Part shown: in pieces, positions 8,950-63,197 of the stretch
Layout: each line of letters begins with the position of its first letter
How positions within the stretch are numbered: the stretch's first letter is position 1
Assembly (NCBI GenBank): GCA_951406725.2
Contig: OX597828.1
Coordinates: forward strand, 62,372,001 to 62,436,000
DNA: 64,000 bases
Origin: Octopus vulgaris
Lineage: Eukaryota
Direction of reading: 5' to 3'
Translations under genes and position numbers: made by a program
Notes under the pieces: generated by a model
The model's database searches: none
What the model saw: the letters and a program-made list of their open reading frames with translations, nothing else
What the model was told of the DNA's origin: nothing

Positions 8950-11088
8950 CAAGATTATGAAAGAAACGACAAAATAAAAAAAGAAAGAGAGAGGCGAGTG
9001 GGGAAAGAGAAAATAAGGAAAGAAAAAGAAATGATCGAAAGTGTAAATCAAGGAAAATTATTGACGAAATAGCGAACGAAAGTGAAAAAAAACAAATAAA
9101 GAGTGAAAGAAAAAATAGTGAAAATACTTATGAGGGGAAGGAAAACTAAAAGAAAAGAAAATGAGAGATTGAATGGAGAAAGTGGAGGCAAAAGTATTAA
9201 GCGAAAAACAACGGTAAAATAGAATTGAAAGTGAGTGGAGAGAGAGAGAGGGTGGAAGATGAAGAGAGAGGAAGATAGAAACGGGATGGCAGAGAGGAGA
9301 AAAAGGAAGAGAAAGAGAAAGAGCGAAGAAAAAAGGATGGGGGGGGGAGAAACAGAGAGAGGAATCAACAGTTGACAGACGTAGAAAGGGTTATAAGAGA
9401 AAGACAAAGACAATAATGCAAGTGAGGTAGGAGAAAAGGACGTCGAAGATAAGAAAGAGAAGAGAGATAGAGAAAGGGAGAGAGAAAGAGAAGAATTCGA
9501 AAGGAAGACGTGCGTGAGCACACACACACACACATACACACACATACGGATGAGGAGGGAGGCAAGTAAAACAGCAACAAGGCATCAAGTGACGTAGGAG
9601 TGAGTGTTAGGAGGAGGTAAAACATTAAAAGATTGTTTCTTTACGATATTTGAGACGTTAGTATCACAGTGCGAGGGGAGTAGTAATAGTAGTAAGAGTT
9701 GAAAGAGGGAGGGGGAAAGAAGGGGAGAAACTTTGCCGTCGCTGGTTACAGTTTTTCTTCCTCATATTTCCTTCTCTTCCTATCACTCTCTCTCTCTTTC
9801 TCTTTCCTCCTACCACTCTGATAAAGTTACTGTTGTTCACAGAAACTTTATTTCGCCTCCTCCTCCTTCCTCATTCTCTACTCCTCTTCTTTTCAGTTCT
9901 TACTCCCACTTCCTCTCTGAAACAATTCGGCCACTGTTATAAACTGTTTTACTTCCTTCTTCCTGTTTCCTCTTTTTTTTATCTCCTTTCACCATTACCA
10001 CCGCCGTCATCACCATCAACACCACTGCCACCATCACCATCAATACCACCGTGACCACCACCACTATCATCGCTACAACCAGCACCACCAGTAACATAAC
10101 CTCCCCTTCTTTCTTTCTTTTTCCTTCCTCCTCTAAACCACTTCTTCATTCATTCTGCCTTCTCTTCCTTCTCCTTCCTCCCCTTTTAACTCTAGCGCCC
10201 CTCTCTCTCTCTCCTCCTACCACCGTCTTCCACATTGATGGTGCTGGCGTTCAATTTGAACCCCAACCTCCGTTCTCTACCCCTCCTCTGCATCATCATC
10301 ATCATCATCATCCTCTTTACTATACTCGTCTCCCACTCTTCACTTTCCTCCTACTTATCACTCCTCCTATTCGGCCTCCTCCCTTTCTTTCCTCTTCCTA
10401 CGACTACGTCCTTCACCCCCTTCCTCTTCCGTCTTCAACCCATTTCTACCTTTACGGAGAGTCGCGCGACTTGGCTAAATATAGCAGCCAAAACTCACTC
10501 AAAATCACATCTTACAACCTTAAACCCATGCAGGGCTTCATAAAAAGACAGAGGAGCAGAATGGTCGCCACTGAGACACCTTCCAACAAAGCCCTGCTGC
10601 TCTAGCATGCCTAACAGTCCAAGAATTAAACAACATTTTCTTCCTTATTTCTCTTTCTTATTGAAGTTCTCCTTCTACTCCTCAAACTCCGACCACCTTT
10701 CTCAAGCGAACACCATCTCTCCCACTCTCTCTCACACACTTTCACTGTTTATCTATCTATTTAACCACTAATTCACGGGGACGTAACAAACCAACACCGG
10801 TTGTCAACTGCCATGTATGTGTGCATGTATGTATGAATGAATGAATGGTTGGATGTATAAATGTAAAGCATAAAGTCAGGAGGTATGCGAGTTGAATATA
10901 TATCTAACCACGTGATTCCTGTAAGGTTACAGCCGTTTCGCGAACTTCTCTATGAAGTTCAGTATGGCAGAAATAATGCATACGTCTTTGACATGTTCGC
11001 TTTAGTACGCACGCTCAGCATTATACAATATAACATACAAGCTAGCTCATCAGATGACCCCGAGCAACAGTGTTACATCAACTATTCA

Positions 11089-44344: not shown

Positions 44345-44546
44345 CATGTTGTTTGGCCCTAGGTCAGCCTTATTCCAAAACCTATGATTGATAGCATTCC
44401 AACTGTGACCATCTCATGCTTTTGCTTAAAGCAGGCCACATTGTCCAATGTATCCTTCCATGTTTTAAGATGATTGGGTATATGAGGAAGATTTGGTTGC
44501 TATTTCTAGCAGATCAAACGACCATGTTGAGGTTTTCTCATTGTTT
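44345..44546 (-). mobile_element. Complete copy of the ~200-bp HDV-like-headed, (AAC)-tailed element
   Basis: Reverse complement: aaacaa-tgagaaa-acc-tcaacat-ggt-cgttt-gat-ctgctagaaatagcaa-ccaa-atcttcctca ... gacctagggccaaacaaca. Confidence 0.7.
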
Positions 44547-48400: not shown

Positions 48401-48995
48401 TTGTTGTTTAGCCCCAGGTGTGCCCTGATTGAGCAGATCTGTGATTAAAGAAGTTCCAACCATGACCATCCCATCACTGACATACAATGCCTCCATTATC
48501 CTGGACATATGTGTCTCTTTCTCTAGAAGACCATAAGATGTGAGCAGAGTGAGTCACATGATCACAAGGGTTTCATTTGGGTTCATGTGCTGCTGTTAGT
48601 GTTGACCCCTAATGAGAGCCAGTCTCGTTAGATCAAAATCATTCCAGTCTTGAACATTCTCTCTTTTTATGTATTTGTGACTATGTTGTTTCTGTGATTA
48701 TTTTTTTTTTATGTTAGGGTGCAGTCTGAGGGGTATTGGGTGCTATCTCTAACATGTCAAGCAGCTACATAATGGCAACCCTCTCATTCATTTATGTTGT
48801 TGGTGGTGGTGGTGTCTTCTGCATTGTTGCTGTTGTTTAACCTCAGGTTGGCCTTACTTGAGTAGCTCTGTGATCAAGGGCATTCCAGCTATGACCGTCC
48901 TTAGGAGTACATTATATAATGTGTCCATCTCTTTTTTAAGAGGGTCAGATGAGATTTAGTTGGGATTTGGCTGTTGTTTCTTGCAGGTCTGTAAT
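48398..48995 (-). mobile_element. Three tandem decayed copies of the HDV-like-headed element
   Basis: Tails ttgtttagccccagg (48403), gttgacccct (48601), gtttaacctcagg (48835); heads near 48727-48790 and 48950-48990. Confidence 0.65.
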
Positions 48996-54260: not shown

Positions 54261-56679
54261 TATTGTGTTTTAAACATGAGACTATGAAGAGATTTTTATC
54301 TCTGGCAATTCCAAGCACCATGCCTTTTAATGATCTGTATACATTTAGTATGATACATATCTTGTGATTTTAATTGAATGCCATTTCAATTGCTTACACT
54401 GAGTTTTTTCTACAGCTTGGCAAGTTTCTACAATACTATTGAATGTTTTATCCCTTGTTTCTTGTATATAGAGGCAAGGAATTTCATTCAAGTCGGTAAC
54501 AACTGAGAGCTTGGCATTGATGAGCTGCAACAAAGAGGAAATATATCTGTTGTTTCCATAAGGCACAGCAGCAATGTTTATCTCAAACAGTTCCATAGCA
54601 TCATGCCTTCTAACAGTGTGCAGACTTTTAGTATGATACATAGATGGCAATTTTAGACTTTGGCTGATTTGGAAGTCTTCTGTAACTTCAGTTTTACAGA
54701 CCTCCTGGATGTTTATAAGTGTGTGTGTGAATGATTCCTTTACACAAGAGCATAACCCAGTATTGGTAATGTTTTTATTGTTGTTGGAGCATATGGAAAA
54801 CTAATTGAAAAGGAAAAAAATATACTTGAAAAAGATGTCTCCCCAACACCACCACCAACCCACCACTACAAGCCCCGAGAAAACTTTGTATTGAGAATGT
54901 GTGTGTGTGTGTGTATTAGTCTTAAAATAGCAGAAAAAATTTCAATGAAATCCCTAAAATGATTTTAAAAAGTTTCTGGTCCCTTCCCAAAAAGAACCCT
55001 GATAATTCCAGGCAATAATTACAGATGTACATCTCAGCAACCCACCCTACTCACATTCTCCCACCCCCTCCTATATCAACATGCTCCTTCATTTTGTCCC
55101 CCATATTTCTAGAGCCCTAAAAGGGATTAAATAACCACTATTTCAATTCTGGGTGCATTTGTTGTTAGCTCTGGTCCTGCCAACCTATGGAATTCATCTC
55201 TCACTCTCTCTCCCTCTCTCTCTCCCTCTCTTGTCTTTCCATAGAATGTAATTTCCTTCCTGCCTTCCCTCTCCAGAGATACACATAGATAGGACCTGAA
55301 CTCCCAAATAGCAGTTTGCTTATCAAATTCTTTATCCATTTCAATATTTCATATCCAGTGGATAGAAACACTTTAGCATGTAGTCCCTCGTCCACCCCAA
55401 CCCCCGTGTACATACAGACATTAAATGAAACAAAATATTACAAAAAAGGTAATATATGATATTGATGATGATTATATATATATCATTGTCATCATCATTA
55501 TCATCTTTTTAACATTTATATCCCATGTTAGCAAGGTTTGGACAGTTTGGCAGGATCTGGTGATCCTCAGGTCTGCCTTGAGCTTCGCCATGTTCTCTAC
55601 AGCTGATGCCTCTCCTAATGCCAAATGTGTACTGGGTGCCTTTTTTTGGTGCTGCCAGCACCATTGAAGTTTGACATGTAATTTGAAAGGCAAGAAAAGA
55701 ACTGGGGGGAAGTCCACATGACTACATAATGGTGGGGAGTATTTGAGAGGATGGATAAGTGGTTTTATGAAAGGCTTATGTATGACAGAGGGACAAGCAG
55801 GTGTCTTTGTAATAGCAGATACAGTGCTTCCTCACATTATATAAGGGAGTAGCTGGGATGATGATAAAGATGGTAGCGATGAGATGCTGGAAAAAACAAA
55901 TAAGGTACAAGAAAGTGAGCATAAGAGATACACACGGTAATCCCTTTGGTAAACTGGATTATTTCTTCATTACTGCAGATGTCAGCCAACCATGTACAGA
56001 CAAATGAGGTCAACCTTACAAAACCTTCAAGTATGAGGAAATTATTCAGTTTGCTAGGACAGAATTATAACATGCTACAGTTTTTTTTTAATTCAGGTGT
56101 GTACAGAGCACATTGCATTCTCTTGAATGAAAACACAACTTCCATTTAATATTGTTTTTGCATGTATGTAGGCAGCTTGGTTTGACTGTGTTTTTTTTTT
56201 CATGTAAAACTTCAAACTGTGCATACATACTCCCAGTAAGTCTCATAGAGTGGAGTATATATACACCAAAATTTTGTGCAAGTATCTTGGAATTTGGACA
56301 TAGCAATCAGTAGCAGATTTGTCATAGTTGACATAAAACAAAATGACTGCATGTCACATGATGCATAGTAATCTCCGTTGCCCTAAAATGAGAGGGTTTG
56401 CAAGTTGATATTCTGCTTATTACTCAAGTGGAGTGGCTTATGATGTAGTATTTCTCAGTCAAACATAAATTGCACTGCTTGAAAATATATAAAGTAGCTC
56501 TGTTCCAAGATACATCAAGTAATGTCATGACTACAAGTGAAAGAAAAAATGGCATTACTGTGTTTTAAAGATTTAACAGAAAACTCATTTAAACACCAAC
56601 TATTCCAGTCCTCCAAGTTCTTTCCAACAAAGACAATATTACTTCACTCTTGAAGCAGATGTAGCAAAGAAGGATTAGA

Positions 56680-57222
56680 CATCTACACAGCTGCTTAATG
56701 TGTTAGAAATAGCAGCCAATCTACCTGAAATCACATCTTACTGTCTGACAACAGGAAGGACCTAGAAATGCTGAAAATGGGAGAGTCAAGGCTGGCCTTT
56801 TATCCTAGACCTACTGGATTAAGATTGACCTGGGGTTAAACAAAAAGACACCACAGAGGTGGCTACTTTTGATGTTGTCCAAGATAAATCTAAAATAGAC
56901 TGGATGGTCACAGTTGGGATGGCTTTGGTCATAGGCCTGCTTAAGTTTAACCTGGAGTTAAATCACAATAATAGTTACGTTAGTATCACCAACGGCAATA
57001 ACTACAAGTGTAATGAGGAGCCAATGAGGGAGGGAGGCAGCATTATGTGGTTGCTTGACCTGCTAGAAACAACTGCCACATTGCCTTCAAGCCATAACTT
57101 ATATTCTCGAAGAAGGGCAGGACATACTGGGTTATTGGATAGTCAGAGAAACATTGTGTGAAATTAAGTTGGGTTGGTCATGGCTGGAACATTAGCTGAC
57201 CTATGGTTAATCACAACAACAA
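56680..57222 (+). mobile_element. Cluster of about three decayed copies of the HDV-like-headed element
   Basis: ttagaaatagcagccaa (56703), gacctggggttaaacaa (56827), cctggagttaaa (56951), gagccaatgaggga...gacctgctagaaa (57018-57070). Confidence 0.65.
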
Positions 57223-57610: not shown

Positions 57611-60040
57611 TAATATATGTGTTTGTATATATATATATATGTATATATATGTTACATACATCTGCCAGTCTCTCTTTTACAATCCCCCTCTCTCTCTTTC
57701 TCTGTACACACACACACACACATATAATACATCTGTGACCATATCTCTCATCTTCTCTCCTGGAATGTACCAATTCTATTGAATTACGCACACATGCACC
57801 CACACACGTACACAGAGACTCATACATGCACACACATTGTGATTCATTTTGATTTTTTTTTTTTTTTTAGAGGGTGGGGGTTATCTGCAATTCAGTTTCA
57901 GAACAAAGAGAAGCAATTTTGGACCAAATTCTTGATGGAATTTAAGAATTCCATCGAGTATTTTGCGTTGGTGGTGTTACTGTGTCATTGTGGAGCAACA
58001 CAGGTCAACCTTCACCCAATAGAGCCTGTGTACTGAAGCGGTTGAGTAGTGGCCATCCTGTGGAGTGGACTGTCTCATCATTGTTTAGTCACCAGATCAA
58101 CTCTTATTCAAAGACATTCCAGCCATGACAACTCTGTGAGGCTTTTGTGGTTGTGGTGACCATTGGTGCATAGCTCCAGGTCAGACCTGACTCATTAGAG
58201 CTGTCATACAAAGGTGCTCCAGTTATCCAAATGTTTGTTATCCACAGCCCCCCCCCCCCCCAGTGTGCTTCATGTCTGCTTCATGTGTATCACATGTCCA
58301 GTACCTCCATTGTGCTACATATCTAGTACCTTTCACTTATTTAAACTTATTTCCTCCTAATGAAGATTTCTCTGCTACTAAGGGGACAGACTTGGATCAT
58401 TGAGTTGACAATAAACACACTCACAGTCACACACACACACATACTCATACACACAGATACAATCACTGATGTATGCACACAGACAAACATACAAACACTC
58501 CCAATTACATACATGTGTTCCCCAGACACATGTTGACACATTTCACATACACACACACACTCATACAAATATACACACACCCATGCACATACACACCAGC
58601 ACGTGCATACATACACCTGCAGATATCCATACACACACAGACTTCCCTGCGTGCACTCAATCACATTTACATACGTTCATCCCTTCCTTTCCCCTCCAGC
58701 CACCTCTCCATCTTCTATTGACTAAATCTTACCAACACATTATTCCAATGTTTAAAGAATCCAACCAACAGTCACCACCATTTCTAAATCTCACATCAAT
58801 ATTTAGATTTCAAAGCGCCATTTTTTTCTGTTCTTTCACCAAAACTCCAGCAGACAAAAGAAATTCTAACTTTTACCATTTATTCTAAATTCTATTTATT
58901 TACTTATTTACTGCTGTACAACATTTGTTCCATCCATTTTGATGTAGATGGAGTAGTTATTTGTCTTGAAGACTACTACTACTACTACTTCTTCTTCTCG
59001 TTGTTGTTTTTACCTAGGAGTATATTATTTGATGTGTCTGTTCTTGTTAGCTTTAATTTGGAAGACCTATGACCAAATGCATTCCAACCATGCCCATCTC
59101 ATTTAGGATTACATTATTTGACATGTCCTTTCCAGTCTTGGTCCTGCAGATTTGTAATGAAATCTTTGCGGACAGTGACCAACCATCTTTTTTTTACCTG
59201 TCATAGTGTATCTAGAGCTACACTAGCAAATGTGTCCTATACTTTTTTAAATAAATTTACTGTAATTTGAGAGAGATTTGGCTGCCATATCTTAGAAGAT
59301 TAACAAGATTAGTCCATAGAGGGTCTCTCATTATTTCATGTGTTGGAGTCATTGTTTTTGCTGCTAGATGTCGCTTCAGCATTTCTTATCACTTAACACT
59401 GAAGTAGGGAGTGGAACCTGTTGGTCAGCCAGGCAGACTAGAGTGAAAGAGTTTTGTGCCTTTGTCAAATATTGGTGGTCATTGTGGTGGGAGGGTCTTT
59501 CACTTTTAACCTCCTTCCTTTCTACTTCATTTGTTGAATGTTTGGCAGGACATATGGTGAAATGGCTACTGCCACATACCCACACACCCCCACACTATAC
59601 CCTTCTCTCTTCATTTTCTTCCATTTATTGACCACATAACTAACTGATCACCCGTCCAGGCATTCAAACCCATACTTGCTTTACTAAGCTGTGTCCTCTC
59701 CTTTTATCAGTCCTGTATATAGTTGCAGGCATGGCTTTGTGGTAAAAGGCTTGCTTACCAACCACACTATTCCAGGTTCAGTCCCACTGCATGACATCTT
59801 CAGCAAATATCTATTGCTATGTCTCCAGGTTGACCAAAACCTTCAAGTGGATTTGGTAGATGGAAACTGAAAGAAGCCCATTCATTTGTCATCATCATCA
59901 TCATCATCACCGGCATGGGCTGGACAGTTCAGCAAGGAGCTGGCTAGTAGGAGCTGTCCAGACCCCAATTCTCTGTTCTGGCAGGGTTTCGTTGGTTGGG
60001 TGCCCATCCTAACACCAGCCACCCAACAGAGTGTGCTAGG

Positions 60041-61170: not shown

Positions 61171-61550
61171 TATTTCAGTGGTTGTTTTGATATTAAGATT
61201 GAAAAAATTGACCTTGTTTGTAAGAAATTTTGGACTTGCGTTTGCACCTCCAAAACAGATTTTGTTTCTGCACTTATGTTGCTCATATAGTCTCTTGTGG
61301 TGATATTTACTTGAGATAGGAGTAAAGTTCAGTTGTGACTATGAAAATGGCTGGTAGCAAAGGTGCCGAAAGTCTTTTGTTTCTGTTTACGCATAGAGAT
61401 TAGCAGTTTGGGAGGATTACCAGTATTTGGAAATGATTTATCTAGAAGTTGTTGTTATATTAGCTTAAAATATGTTCTAGCTATGACCATCTCATCGTTT
61501 TATTGTTCACATAATGTATCTAAGACTACACCATCCAGTATGCTTTTTAT

Positions 61551-62118
61551 TACGAGGATGAGTCAGAAAGTAATGCCATTTTGTTTAGGACAGGTAGAAT
61601 TACCAACACAGGAACATGTATCATACATCAAAAATGAAGCTGGTCCTCTGTGGATCACATCCCTACTTCTCAACTTAGTCACTGTTTCTCTCAATAGCAA
61701 TGTTCCACCTTCGAATGAGAGCATGTATCTCTGCCCCGTAAAATTCTTTGACTGTTCTTTGAGCCACTTCTTCACTACAGTTTTCACTTCCTCATCATCA
61801 GATTTAGCGCCTTCAGACTATCATCTCTTCGGCCCCATGAAAGAGGGTTTGAGAGTCAAACATTATTTTAGTGATGAGGAAGTGAAAACTGTAGTGAAGA
61901 AGTGGCTCAAAGAACAGTCAACAGAATTTTATGGGACAAGGATACATGCTCTCATTCAAAGGTGGAACATGGCTATTGAGAGAAATGGTGCCTATGTTGA
62001 GAAGTAGGGATGTGATCTACAGAGGACCAGCTTCATTTTGATGTATGATACATGTTCCTGTGTTAGTAATTATAGCTGTCCTAAACAAAATGGCATTGCT
62101 TTTTGACTCACCTTCGTA
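61551..62118. mobile_element. Mariner-derived foldback MITE with 247-bp inverted arms
   Basis: TA-CGAGG...CTTCG-TA ends; arms 61551-61797 and 61872-62118; plus strand reads SDLAPSDYHLFGPMKEGL...GAYVEK*. Confidence 0.92.
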
Positions 62119-62690: not shown

Positions 62691-63197
62691 AAACGTGTTT
62701 TAAAAGATATTTATTAAAAAAATAGAGAAGATTATAATTTGTTTTAATAAATTATATTTGTAGATAAATTTATGAAGAACAAGTTTACACAGATACTTGA
62801 GGATTAGAATGGATTATATAAAGCCTTTAAATTATAATATTAAGAATCTATGATGCACCTGTATACTATTTGCAATACTGCAGTGCACTGTCTGAGGTAA
62901 AGTAAGATTGAAAGATTTAGCTTCTATTTCTAACAAATTAAACAACACATGGAGGTTTCAGGATACTGGGTCTCAAAGAGTGTCACCATTATGCCACAAT
63001 CAGTAGAATGTGATAAACACACACTCTGCAGTGTTCAAGTTAAGTCACTTTCTATTCCAGGTTCAACTTCTGGGGTCAATGAAAGACAGAATGAACCAAA
63101 AGGGATTTCAGCGATGAAACCTTTCTCACAAATTCCTTCTTATTTTTCTATAAAAGAGATTATTAATTTAAAAAATTAAAAAATTATTATTATTATT

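Follow-up and report, generated by a model that had tools for sequence, protein, structure and literature searches.

A decayed, protein-less ~210-bp retroposon family of Octopus vulgaris with a predicted HDV-like 5' head and probable ties to Ingi-type LINEs

The window analysed here (one stretch of 64,000 bp of Octopus vulgaris DNA) carries at 44345..44546 a non-coding sequence that an earlier note, made from the letters alone, took for one copy of an abundant retroposon with a 5' end like an HDV-type self-cleaving ribozyme. Is this sequence part of a dispersed family, does its head have such a fold, and whose enzymes moved it?

The repeat family and its copies

The sequence at 44345..44546 belongs to a real dispersed family. 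A family profile of 217 model positions, built from genome-wide copies, gives 17 matches at E<0.001 in the 64-kb window, while reversal of the window left no match at E<1 to the first family profile; BLAST with the flagged copy alone as query found three partners only, all of them weak. All nine of the heads listed at that time are matched by the profile (two of these matches start late, at 10460 and 48989, which are model positions 27 and 35, respectively), and the terminal column profile confirms the tail motif and the (AAC)n that follows it. The matches in the window are as follows:

10460..10599, + strand: copy with its 5' part lost or diverged (model 27-186, E 4e-9)
27431..27520, - strand: head-only piece (model 4-94, E 3e-13)
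32322..32739, + strand: one copy in two pieces, 32322-32405 and 32617-32739 (model 4-87 and 85-215)
44347..44546, - strand: the flagged copy, a near-complete, decayed member of the ~210-bp family (model 4-215 of 217, E 1.2e-40)
48401..48989, - strand: three consecutive copies, 48989-48831, 48781-48628 and 48552-48401 (profile matches)
56674..57213, + strand: three consecutive copies, 56674-56845, 56871-56968 and 57019-57213 (profile matches)
58080..58226, - strand: two 3' fragments (model 143-214 and 154-216, E about 1e-4)
59046..59338, - strand: copy 59338-59133, then a second 3' half, 59133-59046 (profile matches)
61466..61551, - strand: body fragment (model 87-172, E 9e-9)
62897..62959, - strand: head fragment (model 14-80, E 3e-4)

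The two pieces of the copy at 32322..32739 are separated by ~210 bp of another common repeat (32405-32617).

The consensus of 345 distinct pieces consists of a 65-nt head, ~20 bases, an A-run and a ~120-nt body with a second A-run, and it ends at a fixed 3' terminus followed by (AAC)n. The whole is ~210 bp long and has no ORF-encoded protein. Pol III boxes had been reported absent, and this stands, as the consensus has no A/B box pattern and the 64-kb window no tRNA gene; nothing conserved lies upstream of the head, so a longer tRNA-headed element as source finds no support. The 5' boundary is the C of a decayed CpG (the first dinucleotide is CG in 7 copies, TG in 26 and CA in 11), which places the true start one base upstream of the one first proposed. 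An Rfam scan of the window gave only microsatellite-driven microRNA matches among the 150 of 453 listed.

What do the flanks say about insertion? In 8 of 33 full-length copies the two flanks have a word of 8 nt or longer in common, compared with 6.8% of mismatched pairs; we read this as a probable target-site-duplication signal that is weak, as expected at such age. In the flagged copy there is no clear duplication, the longest word common to its flanks being 6 nt. Of 102 copies with a complete 5' end, 12 have runs of C/A-rich triplets in the 5' flank, compared with 2.4% for random windows, and some of these runs are the tails of neighbouring element copies. Where pieces are truncated (40 at the 5' end and 82 at the 3' end), their flanks revealed nothing but other repeats that had inserted later.

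The abundance of the family can be estimated from a sample of 36 ten-kb stretches at hand-picked round coordinates on 30 contigs of the source assembly (2.8 Gb, 227 contigs). The sample contains 37 profile matches that cover 4,644 bases (0-8 matches per stretch). Scaled up to the whole genome, this gives about 3x10^5 pieces and about 1.3% of the DNA, with broken copies counted twice. Non-CpG divergence from the consensus averages 26% and is at least 17% among 140 long copies, and the closest matches of the best-kept copy elsewhere are 77-89% identical, none being above 89%. We looked for young copies and found none: a 27-nt CpG-intact pattern had 0 exact matches (a 17-nt one had 37). To judge from its sequences the family is old and inactive, and its present copies are decayed, most of them predicted to be inactive.

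The predicted fold of the head

The fold was read from a consensus of 221 heads in which the decayed CpG at position 1 had been restored. In this form the first 65 nt can be arranged as an HDV-like double pseudoknot beginning at C. In the model, P1 has five Watson-Crick pairs (CGAGC/GCTCG) with a C-C mismatch on top (six positions), P2 has six pairs (GAGGGA/TCCCTC), P3 has three pairs, one of them G-U, L3 has 7 nt (U at its first and G at its sixth position), P1.1 is a single U-A pair beside a C-C, P4 has six pairs and a GAAA loop, and J4/2 reads C-A-A-A, after which two extra bases precede P2'. The P2, P3 and P4 arms, the 7-nt L3 and the J4/2 that had been described by eye are therefore all present in the 221-head consensus. 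The majority states at the core positions are U (148 of 186 heads) and G (124 of 204) in L3, and C (150 of 220), A (188 of 216) and A (193 of 220) in J4/2; the remainder of the general-acid column includes T in 45 of the 220 heads, a distribution like that of the neighbouring C columns. The parts of the fold, and the other end of the element, fall in the flagged copy at

44483..44546, - strand: predicted HDV-like head, P1-P2-P3-L3-P3'-P1'-P1.1-P4-J4/2-P2' (by alignment to the family consensus; fold from the consensus)
44524..44530, - strand: L3 loop (by alignment to the consensus)
44497..44512, - strand: P4 hairpin closed by a GAAA loop; this copy has lost one of its pairs
44495, - strand: C at the HDV general-acid position (by alignment), kept in this copy
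44347..44363, - strand: 3' end of the element, where the (AAC)n tail begins (by the terminal column profile)

By analogy with HDV, the C at 44495 would have a putative general-acid role. Family bases 1-2 are missing or changed in the alignment of the flagged copy to the consensus, and in its L3 the G of the predicted U-G pair is gone by CpG decay and a second base is changed. This copy is thus predicted to be inactive: the catalytic C is still there, whereas the L3 G, one P4 pair and part of P1 are gone.

The same order of helices, the 7-nt L3 with U first and G sixth, and a J4/2 of the form C-N-R-A are features of the CPEB3 and HDV ribozymes. The element differs from them in having C rather than G at +1, a P1 of five pairs plus a mismatch, a P1.1 of U-A rather than C-G and two extra bases before P2', and it gives no Rfam match. 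The usual HDV-like P1 has 6-7 pairs (PMC4908430), so that of the element is one pair below this range. The caveats first attached to the fold (a short P1, an odd P1.1 and a long J4/2) largely dissolve when the first C is restored and the comparison is made with ribozymes of the L1Tc type and with the Ingi-type head described below.

How specific is the layout? A descriptor of it matches the consensus and none of 200,000 base shuffles. It was written and relaxed after both heads (that of the element and that of the LINE family B below) had been seen, since a stricter version had found nothing in 21 Ingi loci, and its matches therefore measure fit and are not a blind prediction. When run on both strands of 1,952,830 bases, the relaxed descriptor gave four distinct matches: three were 5' ends of a single LINE family and the fourth was the element copy L219; on the reversed sequence it gave none.

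The earlier note had proposed covariation and HDV-like covariance models as checks, and had itself pointed to P1 changes between copies that stayed complementary. Neither check lends support. Among 221 heads (23 pairs, 46 tests) four tests were nominally below p=0.05 and none survived correction, so that P1, P2 and P3 show no covariation above chance; for the two pairs cited, double changes number 4 where 4.8 are expected and 7 where 7.1 are expected, and the P1 differences between copies are decay. Such an absence of covariation is the outcome of neutral decay from one master and neither supports nor refutes the fold. No ribozyme was matched in Rfam either, with 0 matches at the gathering score in 8 loci and no ribozyme family among 38 matches at E<=10 in 6 loci that include the LINE head. 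On the modelled fold, we predict that the head is, in its ancestral form, a self-cleaving RNA. The predicted cut site of the L219 copy is spanned by contigs of three runs that are presumed to be RNA (in two of the three by more than 31 bases on either side), and this is uninformative about cleavage because contigs show no ends and the P4 of L219 is decayed.

Ingi-type LINEs and the search for a partner

The L1Tc/SIDER ribozymes, as described in PMC3185411 and PMC4035085, cut before a C at +1 and have a 3-bp P3 and a one-pair P1.1, and because of this likeness we searched the same genome for LINEs of the Ingi clade. An RNase H search gave 8 matches, 7 of them in non-LTR elements, and a protein search gave 100 matches in three Ingi-type families (A, B and C), all of which end in (AAC)n, as does the element. 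Families A and C are mostly 5'-truncated, and the single family-C 5' piece ends before its head. A near-complete family-B LINE of about 4.6 kb, with stops and frameshifts, lies at C10:3419809-3424460 (+). It has a 2A motif 165 bases from its start, then PHD fingers, an endonuclease, a reverse transcriptase and an RNase H (the endonuclease and RNase H matches are just below the Pfam cut-off in this broken copy), and no separate ORF1 was seen. Its layout is that of Ingi according to PMC3708506, and RNase H distinguishes Ingi from Vingi (PMC13708176); we accordingly class family B as apparently Ingi-type, its clade being read from domain layout alone. Its homologues are single APE-RT-RNase H proteins, with a 2A motif in 13 of 68. 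Several Ingi-type copies (L296, L297, L304 and L310) have their 5' part inverted relative to their 3' part, as in twin priming.

The 5' end of family B, as read from eight copies, starts with C and can be given a fold like that of the element: a six-pair P1, a P2 of GAGAAC/GTTCTC, a P3 of ACC/GGT, a 7-nt L3 and a J4/2 of C-G-A-A, again with two extra bases before P2'. P1 and P2 of the two heads differ in most or half of their pairs and the pairing is kept, compensatory helix differences that are seen only between the element family and this one LINE family; in primary sequence the two heads resemble each other weakly (p=0.019). A 94-bp stretch directly upstream of the family-B LINE was considered as a decayed head and rejected, as it belongs to an unrelated repeat and the true head follows directly after it. 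An abundant repeat of at least 300 bp, often in inverted or tandem pairs (L356-L374 and L295:4188-4281), has a short word in common with P4 and gives no family-profile match.

Family B also has short derivatives of 260-280 bp that carry both of its ends, are internally deleted and have no ORF:

L378, L379, L380, L381, L353 and L354 (on C6, C20, C19, C28, C6 and C11, respectively): short family-B derivatives

Such a two-end derivative means that the NARTc pattern occurs in the octopus genome. Its head has a perfect 6-bp P1 and GG for P1.1, and the general-acid position is A in 4 of 4 short derivatives compared and C in 4 of 4 LINE copies, so heads of this kind can spread without the catalytic base.

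Did family B or a relative of it move the element? No LINE among families A, B and C has the element's 130-nt 3' part, and comparison of its body and tail with the three families gave p values of 0.19-0.9. The last 7 bases of family B before the repeat are identical to those of the element; the same 7-nt terminal word also ends an RTE-like element (L142) that has a (GAT)n tail. In the 30 top reverse transcriptase loci the tail was behind the reverse transcriptase in none, and 30 endonuclease loci of one family had no ends in common with the element. Readable RTE-like ends are (ATAG)n, (GAT)n, (ATCAA)n-like or (AT)n, two others being illegible, and the 3' end of a Dong element is (TAA)n. RTE, CR1 and Dong were accordingly rejected as partners for the families that the searches returned, as no ends are shared and the readable tails lack (AAC)n. 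Two details of these loci are worth recording: L054 holds an RTE-like element followed by a minisatellite of ~52-bp units from its 3' untranslated region, and L123:3-2000 (+) an open stretch of 665 aa with a (TAA)n tail, which from its motifs we take to be Dong/R4-like.

The search for an autonomous LINE sharing both ends, another check suggested at the outset, therefore found none, and the parent LINE is either extinct or beyond the searches. Of the original proposal of a ribozyme-headed, Pol III-independent, SINE-like family mobilised by an RTE-type LINE, the lack of boxes and the HDV-like fit hold up and the RTE driver finds no support. An Ingi-type LINE is the likely driver instead, because the same predicted head fold is found on an Ingi-type LINE and all three Ingi families are (AAC)n-tailed while the other ends that could be read are not. 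Near Ingi pieces there are 21 matches to the element in 27 loci, 14 of them on the same strand; they were counted at thresholds that differ from those of the background count, and we do not take them as enrichment.

Mechanism, rival readings and relation to known systems

We think it probable, if well short of assured, that the following chain holds as a whole: an old, protein-less 210-bp retroposon with a ribozyme-fold head of the L1Tc/Ingi type was copied by the proteins of an Ingi-type LINE. Host promoters, or else the head, would have driven transcription of a master copy, and the head would cut the RNA just before its first C, freeing unit-length RNA from host transcripts. An Ingi-type reverse transcriptase would then prime on the (AAC)n end at a nick (target-primed reverse transcription), insertion would often be within C/A-rich triplet repeats, and the head would be carried along with each full-length copy.

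The origin could be the same and cutting not required, the head being an internal Pol II promoter, a protein-binding site or a cap substitute and the fixed 5' end a transcription start. PMC3185411 describes Pr77 of L1Tc as both promoter and ribozyme, and the CGTG at +25 to +28 that is essential in Pr77 (PMC4748587) corresponds to positions +23 to +26 in the element consensus; the short P1 and the two extra J4/2 bases also speak for this reading, as do the short family-B derivatives, which start near C1 in spite of their A for the catalytic C. Because heads have spread without that C and Pr77 is also a promoter, a fixed 5' end is no proof of cleavage. The ancestral element nevertheless keeps the catalytic C, the U and G of L3 and the adenines of J4/2, the family-B LINE head has AGTG and not CGTG at the corresponding place, and promoter and ribozyme functions are mutually compatible, so we hold a head that had no need to cut to be rather unlikely. 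A ribozyme head driven by an RTE or some other LINE seems to us a still poorer prospect. Tails of the (AAC)n type are common in Bov-B-type RTE elements, which counts for an RTE driver, as do the RTE-like element with the same last 7 nt and the failure to find the true parent; RTE elements can, according to PMC5786205, carry HDV-like ribozymes and make two-part derivatives. Set against this are the 0 of 30 top reverse transcriptase loci with the tail, the different readable ends of the RTE-like and Dong elements, and the fact that the only other head of such a fold that was found belongs to a LINE bearing RNase H and 2A.

Might the fold be a coincidence, the 5' half having come from elsewhere, for example from the coding 3' end of Ingi family A? 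The first 85 nt (consensus 11-84) do give a gapped match to a family-A coding 3' end (L270) at p=0.002, in one of nine tests, both halves of the element also exist as separate tandem arrays (below), and covariation within the family is absent. The family profile, however, has no match in family-A 3' ends at E<1, and a consensus translation aligned with the Ingi-A protein gave a six-residue match that is not significant (E 3.2). Five helical elements in nested order together with the core bases, reached by 0 of 200,000 shuffles, and an independent LINE head with an identical layout would also have to be accidents, and we give chance little credence. That the head is a hammerhead ribozyme, type-I or permuted and of Penelope-type origin, has next to nothing to recommend it, although P1 and P3 could supply the arms of stems I and III on either side of a GUC triplet and two head-to-head inverted element pairs occur (L007:1319-1669 and L009:1283-1675). 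The CUGANGA box needs a G at position 5, where the family has an A that is not a decayed CpG (CG 3, CA 34, TG 3), and alteration of the same G is an inactivating mutation in PMC10085705; no helix II closes onto the GAAA box, and in the minimal hammerheads of Penelope elements helix II is long (PMC4209133). Hammerhead identity was rejected on these column counts and on helix II, and the Ingi-driven retroposon with a ribozyme-fold head remains our preferred reading.

The class to which such an element would belong is already known (NARTc, RIME, SIDER, R2 SIDEs and two-part RTE and Vingi derivatives). As characterised in PMC3185411, PMC4035085 and PMC3383444, the trypanosomatid elements NARTc, RIME and SIDER1 are, like the octopus element, short and ORF-less with an HDV-like fold at their exact 5' end; both have C as first base, a 3-bp P3 and a one-pair P1.1, a likeness to their LINE that does not go beyond the head and the last 3' bases (NARTc and L1Tc have 77 nt and about 30 nt in common there) and a LINE partner, putative in the octopus, with a 2A motif. 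The octopus element differs in its animal host, in (AAC)n instead of poly(A), in its about 3x10^5 pieces, in having no parent found and in its predicted head of ~65 nt, Pr77 having been compared by features and not by alignment. The two-part ORF-less derivatives of PMC5786205 (Bov-A, RTESINE, Vingi-1_EE derivatives and R2 SIDEs) also lack a Pol III head and keep a LINE-type 5' end, and that paper ties the class to 5' ribozymes; the element departs from them in showing no body or tail homology to the LINEs known or found, and the Ingi-derived examples given there are trypanosomal. None of four motifs searched for is in the supplement of that paper. LP-SINEs of gastropods and bivalves (PMC4758252) likewise have ~70 nt of a LINE 5' end as head and no tRNA; the scallop LP head in the supplement of the same paper differs in sequence by eye and is tied to Nimb and RTE LINEs. 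A search of mostly open-access literature returned nothing on the element family, which may already be named in a repeat library, and nothing on heads of HDV type in Ingi elements from octopus or any other animal.

If the proposed chain is correct, the L1Tc/NARTc design, with a 5' end defined by a ribozyme and no Pol III promoter, extends to an Ingi clade in animals, and an element of this design can attain SINE-scale copy numbers. The two heads would be natural examples of a predicted HDV-like fold in which +1 is C, P1 is short and J4/2 is longer, and the family is one of the major octopus repeats, one that SINE annotation centred on tRNA heads would overlook. The family combines an uncommon variant of the modelled ribozyme fold with a very high copy number, and brings no new mechanism. 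A more ambitious extension, which we offer as conceivable and on balance doubtful, is that the C-started ribozyme of trypanosome type (perhaps also a promoter) is ancient in the whole Ingi clade and survived in animals, that in the octopus it drove a SINE-scale burst, independent of Pol III, which left some 10^5 insertions (about 1% of the genome) and was later recycled into satellites of 95-126 bp, and that a few transcript-borne copies may still cut or start transcription.

The satellites lie on C29 and C30, which are the two smallest chromosomes. One kind repeats only the head, in tandem arrays of 107-bp units (14 units, 96% matches) or of units of about 95 bp, and another repeats the 3' half in units of 126 bp. 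These young arrays are at dozens of places and include

L028-L030, L177-L184, L383, L384, L194 and L195: half-element arrays

All 25 distinct 107-bp units have a broken second P1 pair and an A in place of the L3 G, and on account of these two changes these arrays are predicted to be inactive DNA satellites that grew from a decayed copy, and not rolling ribozyme repeats.
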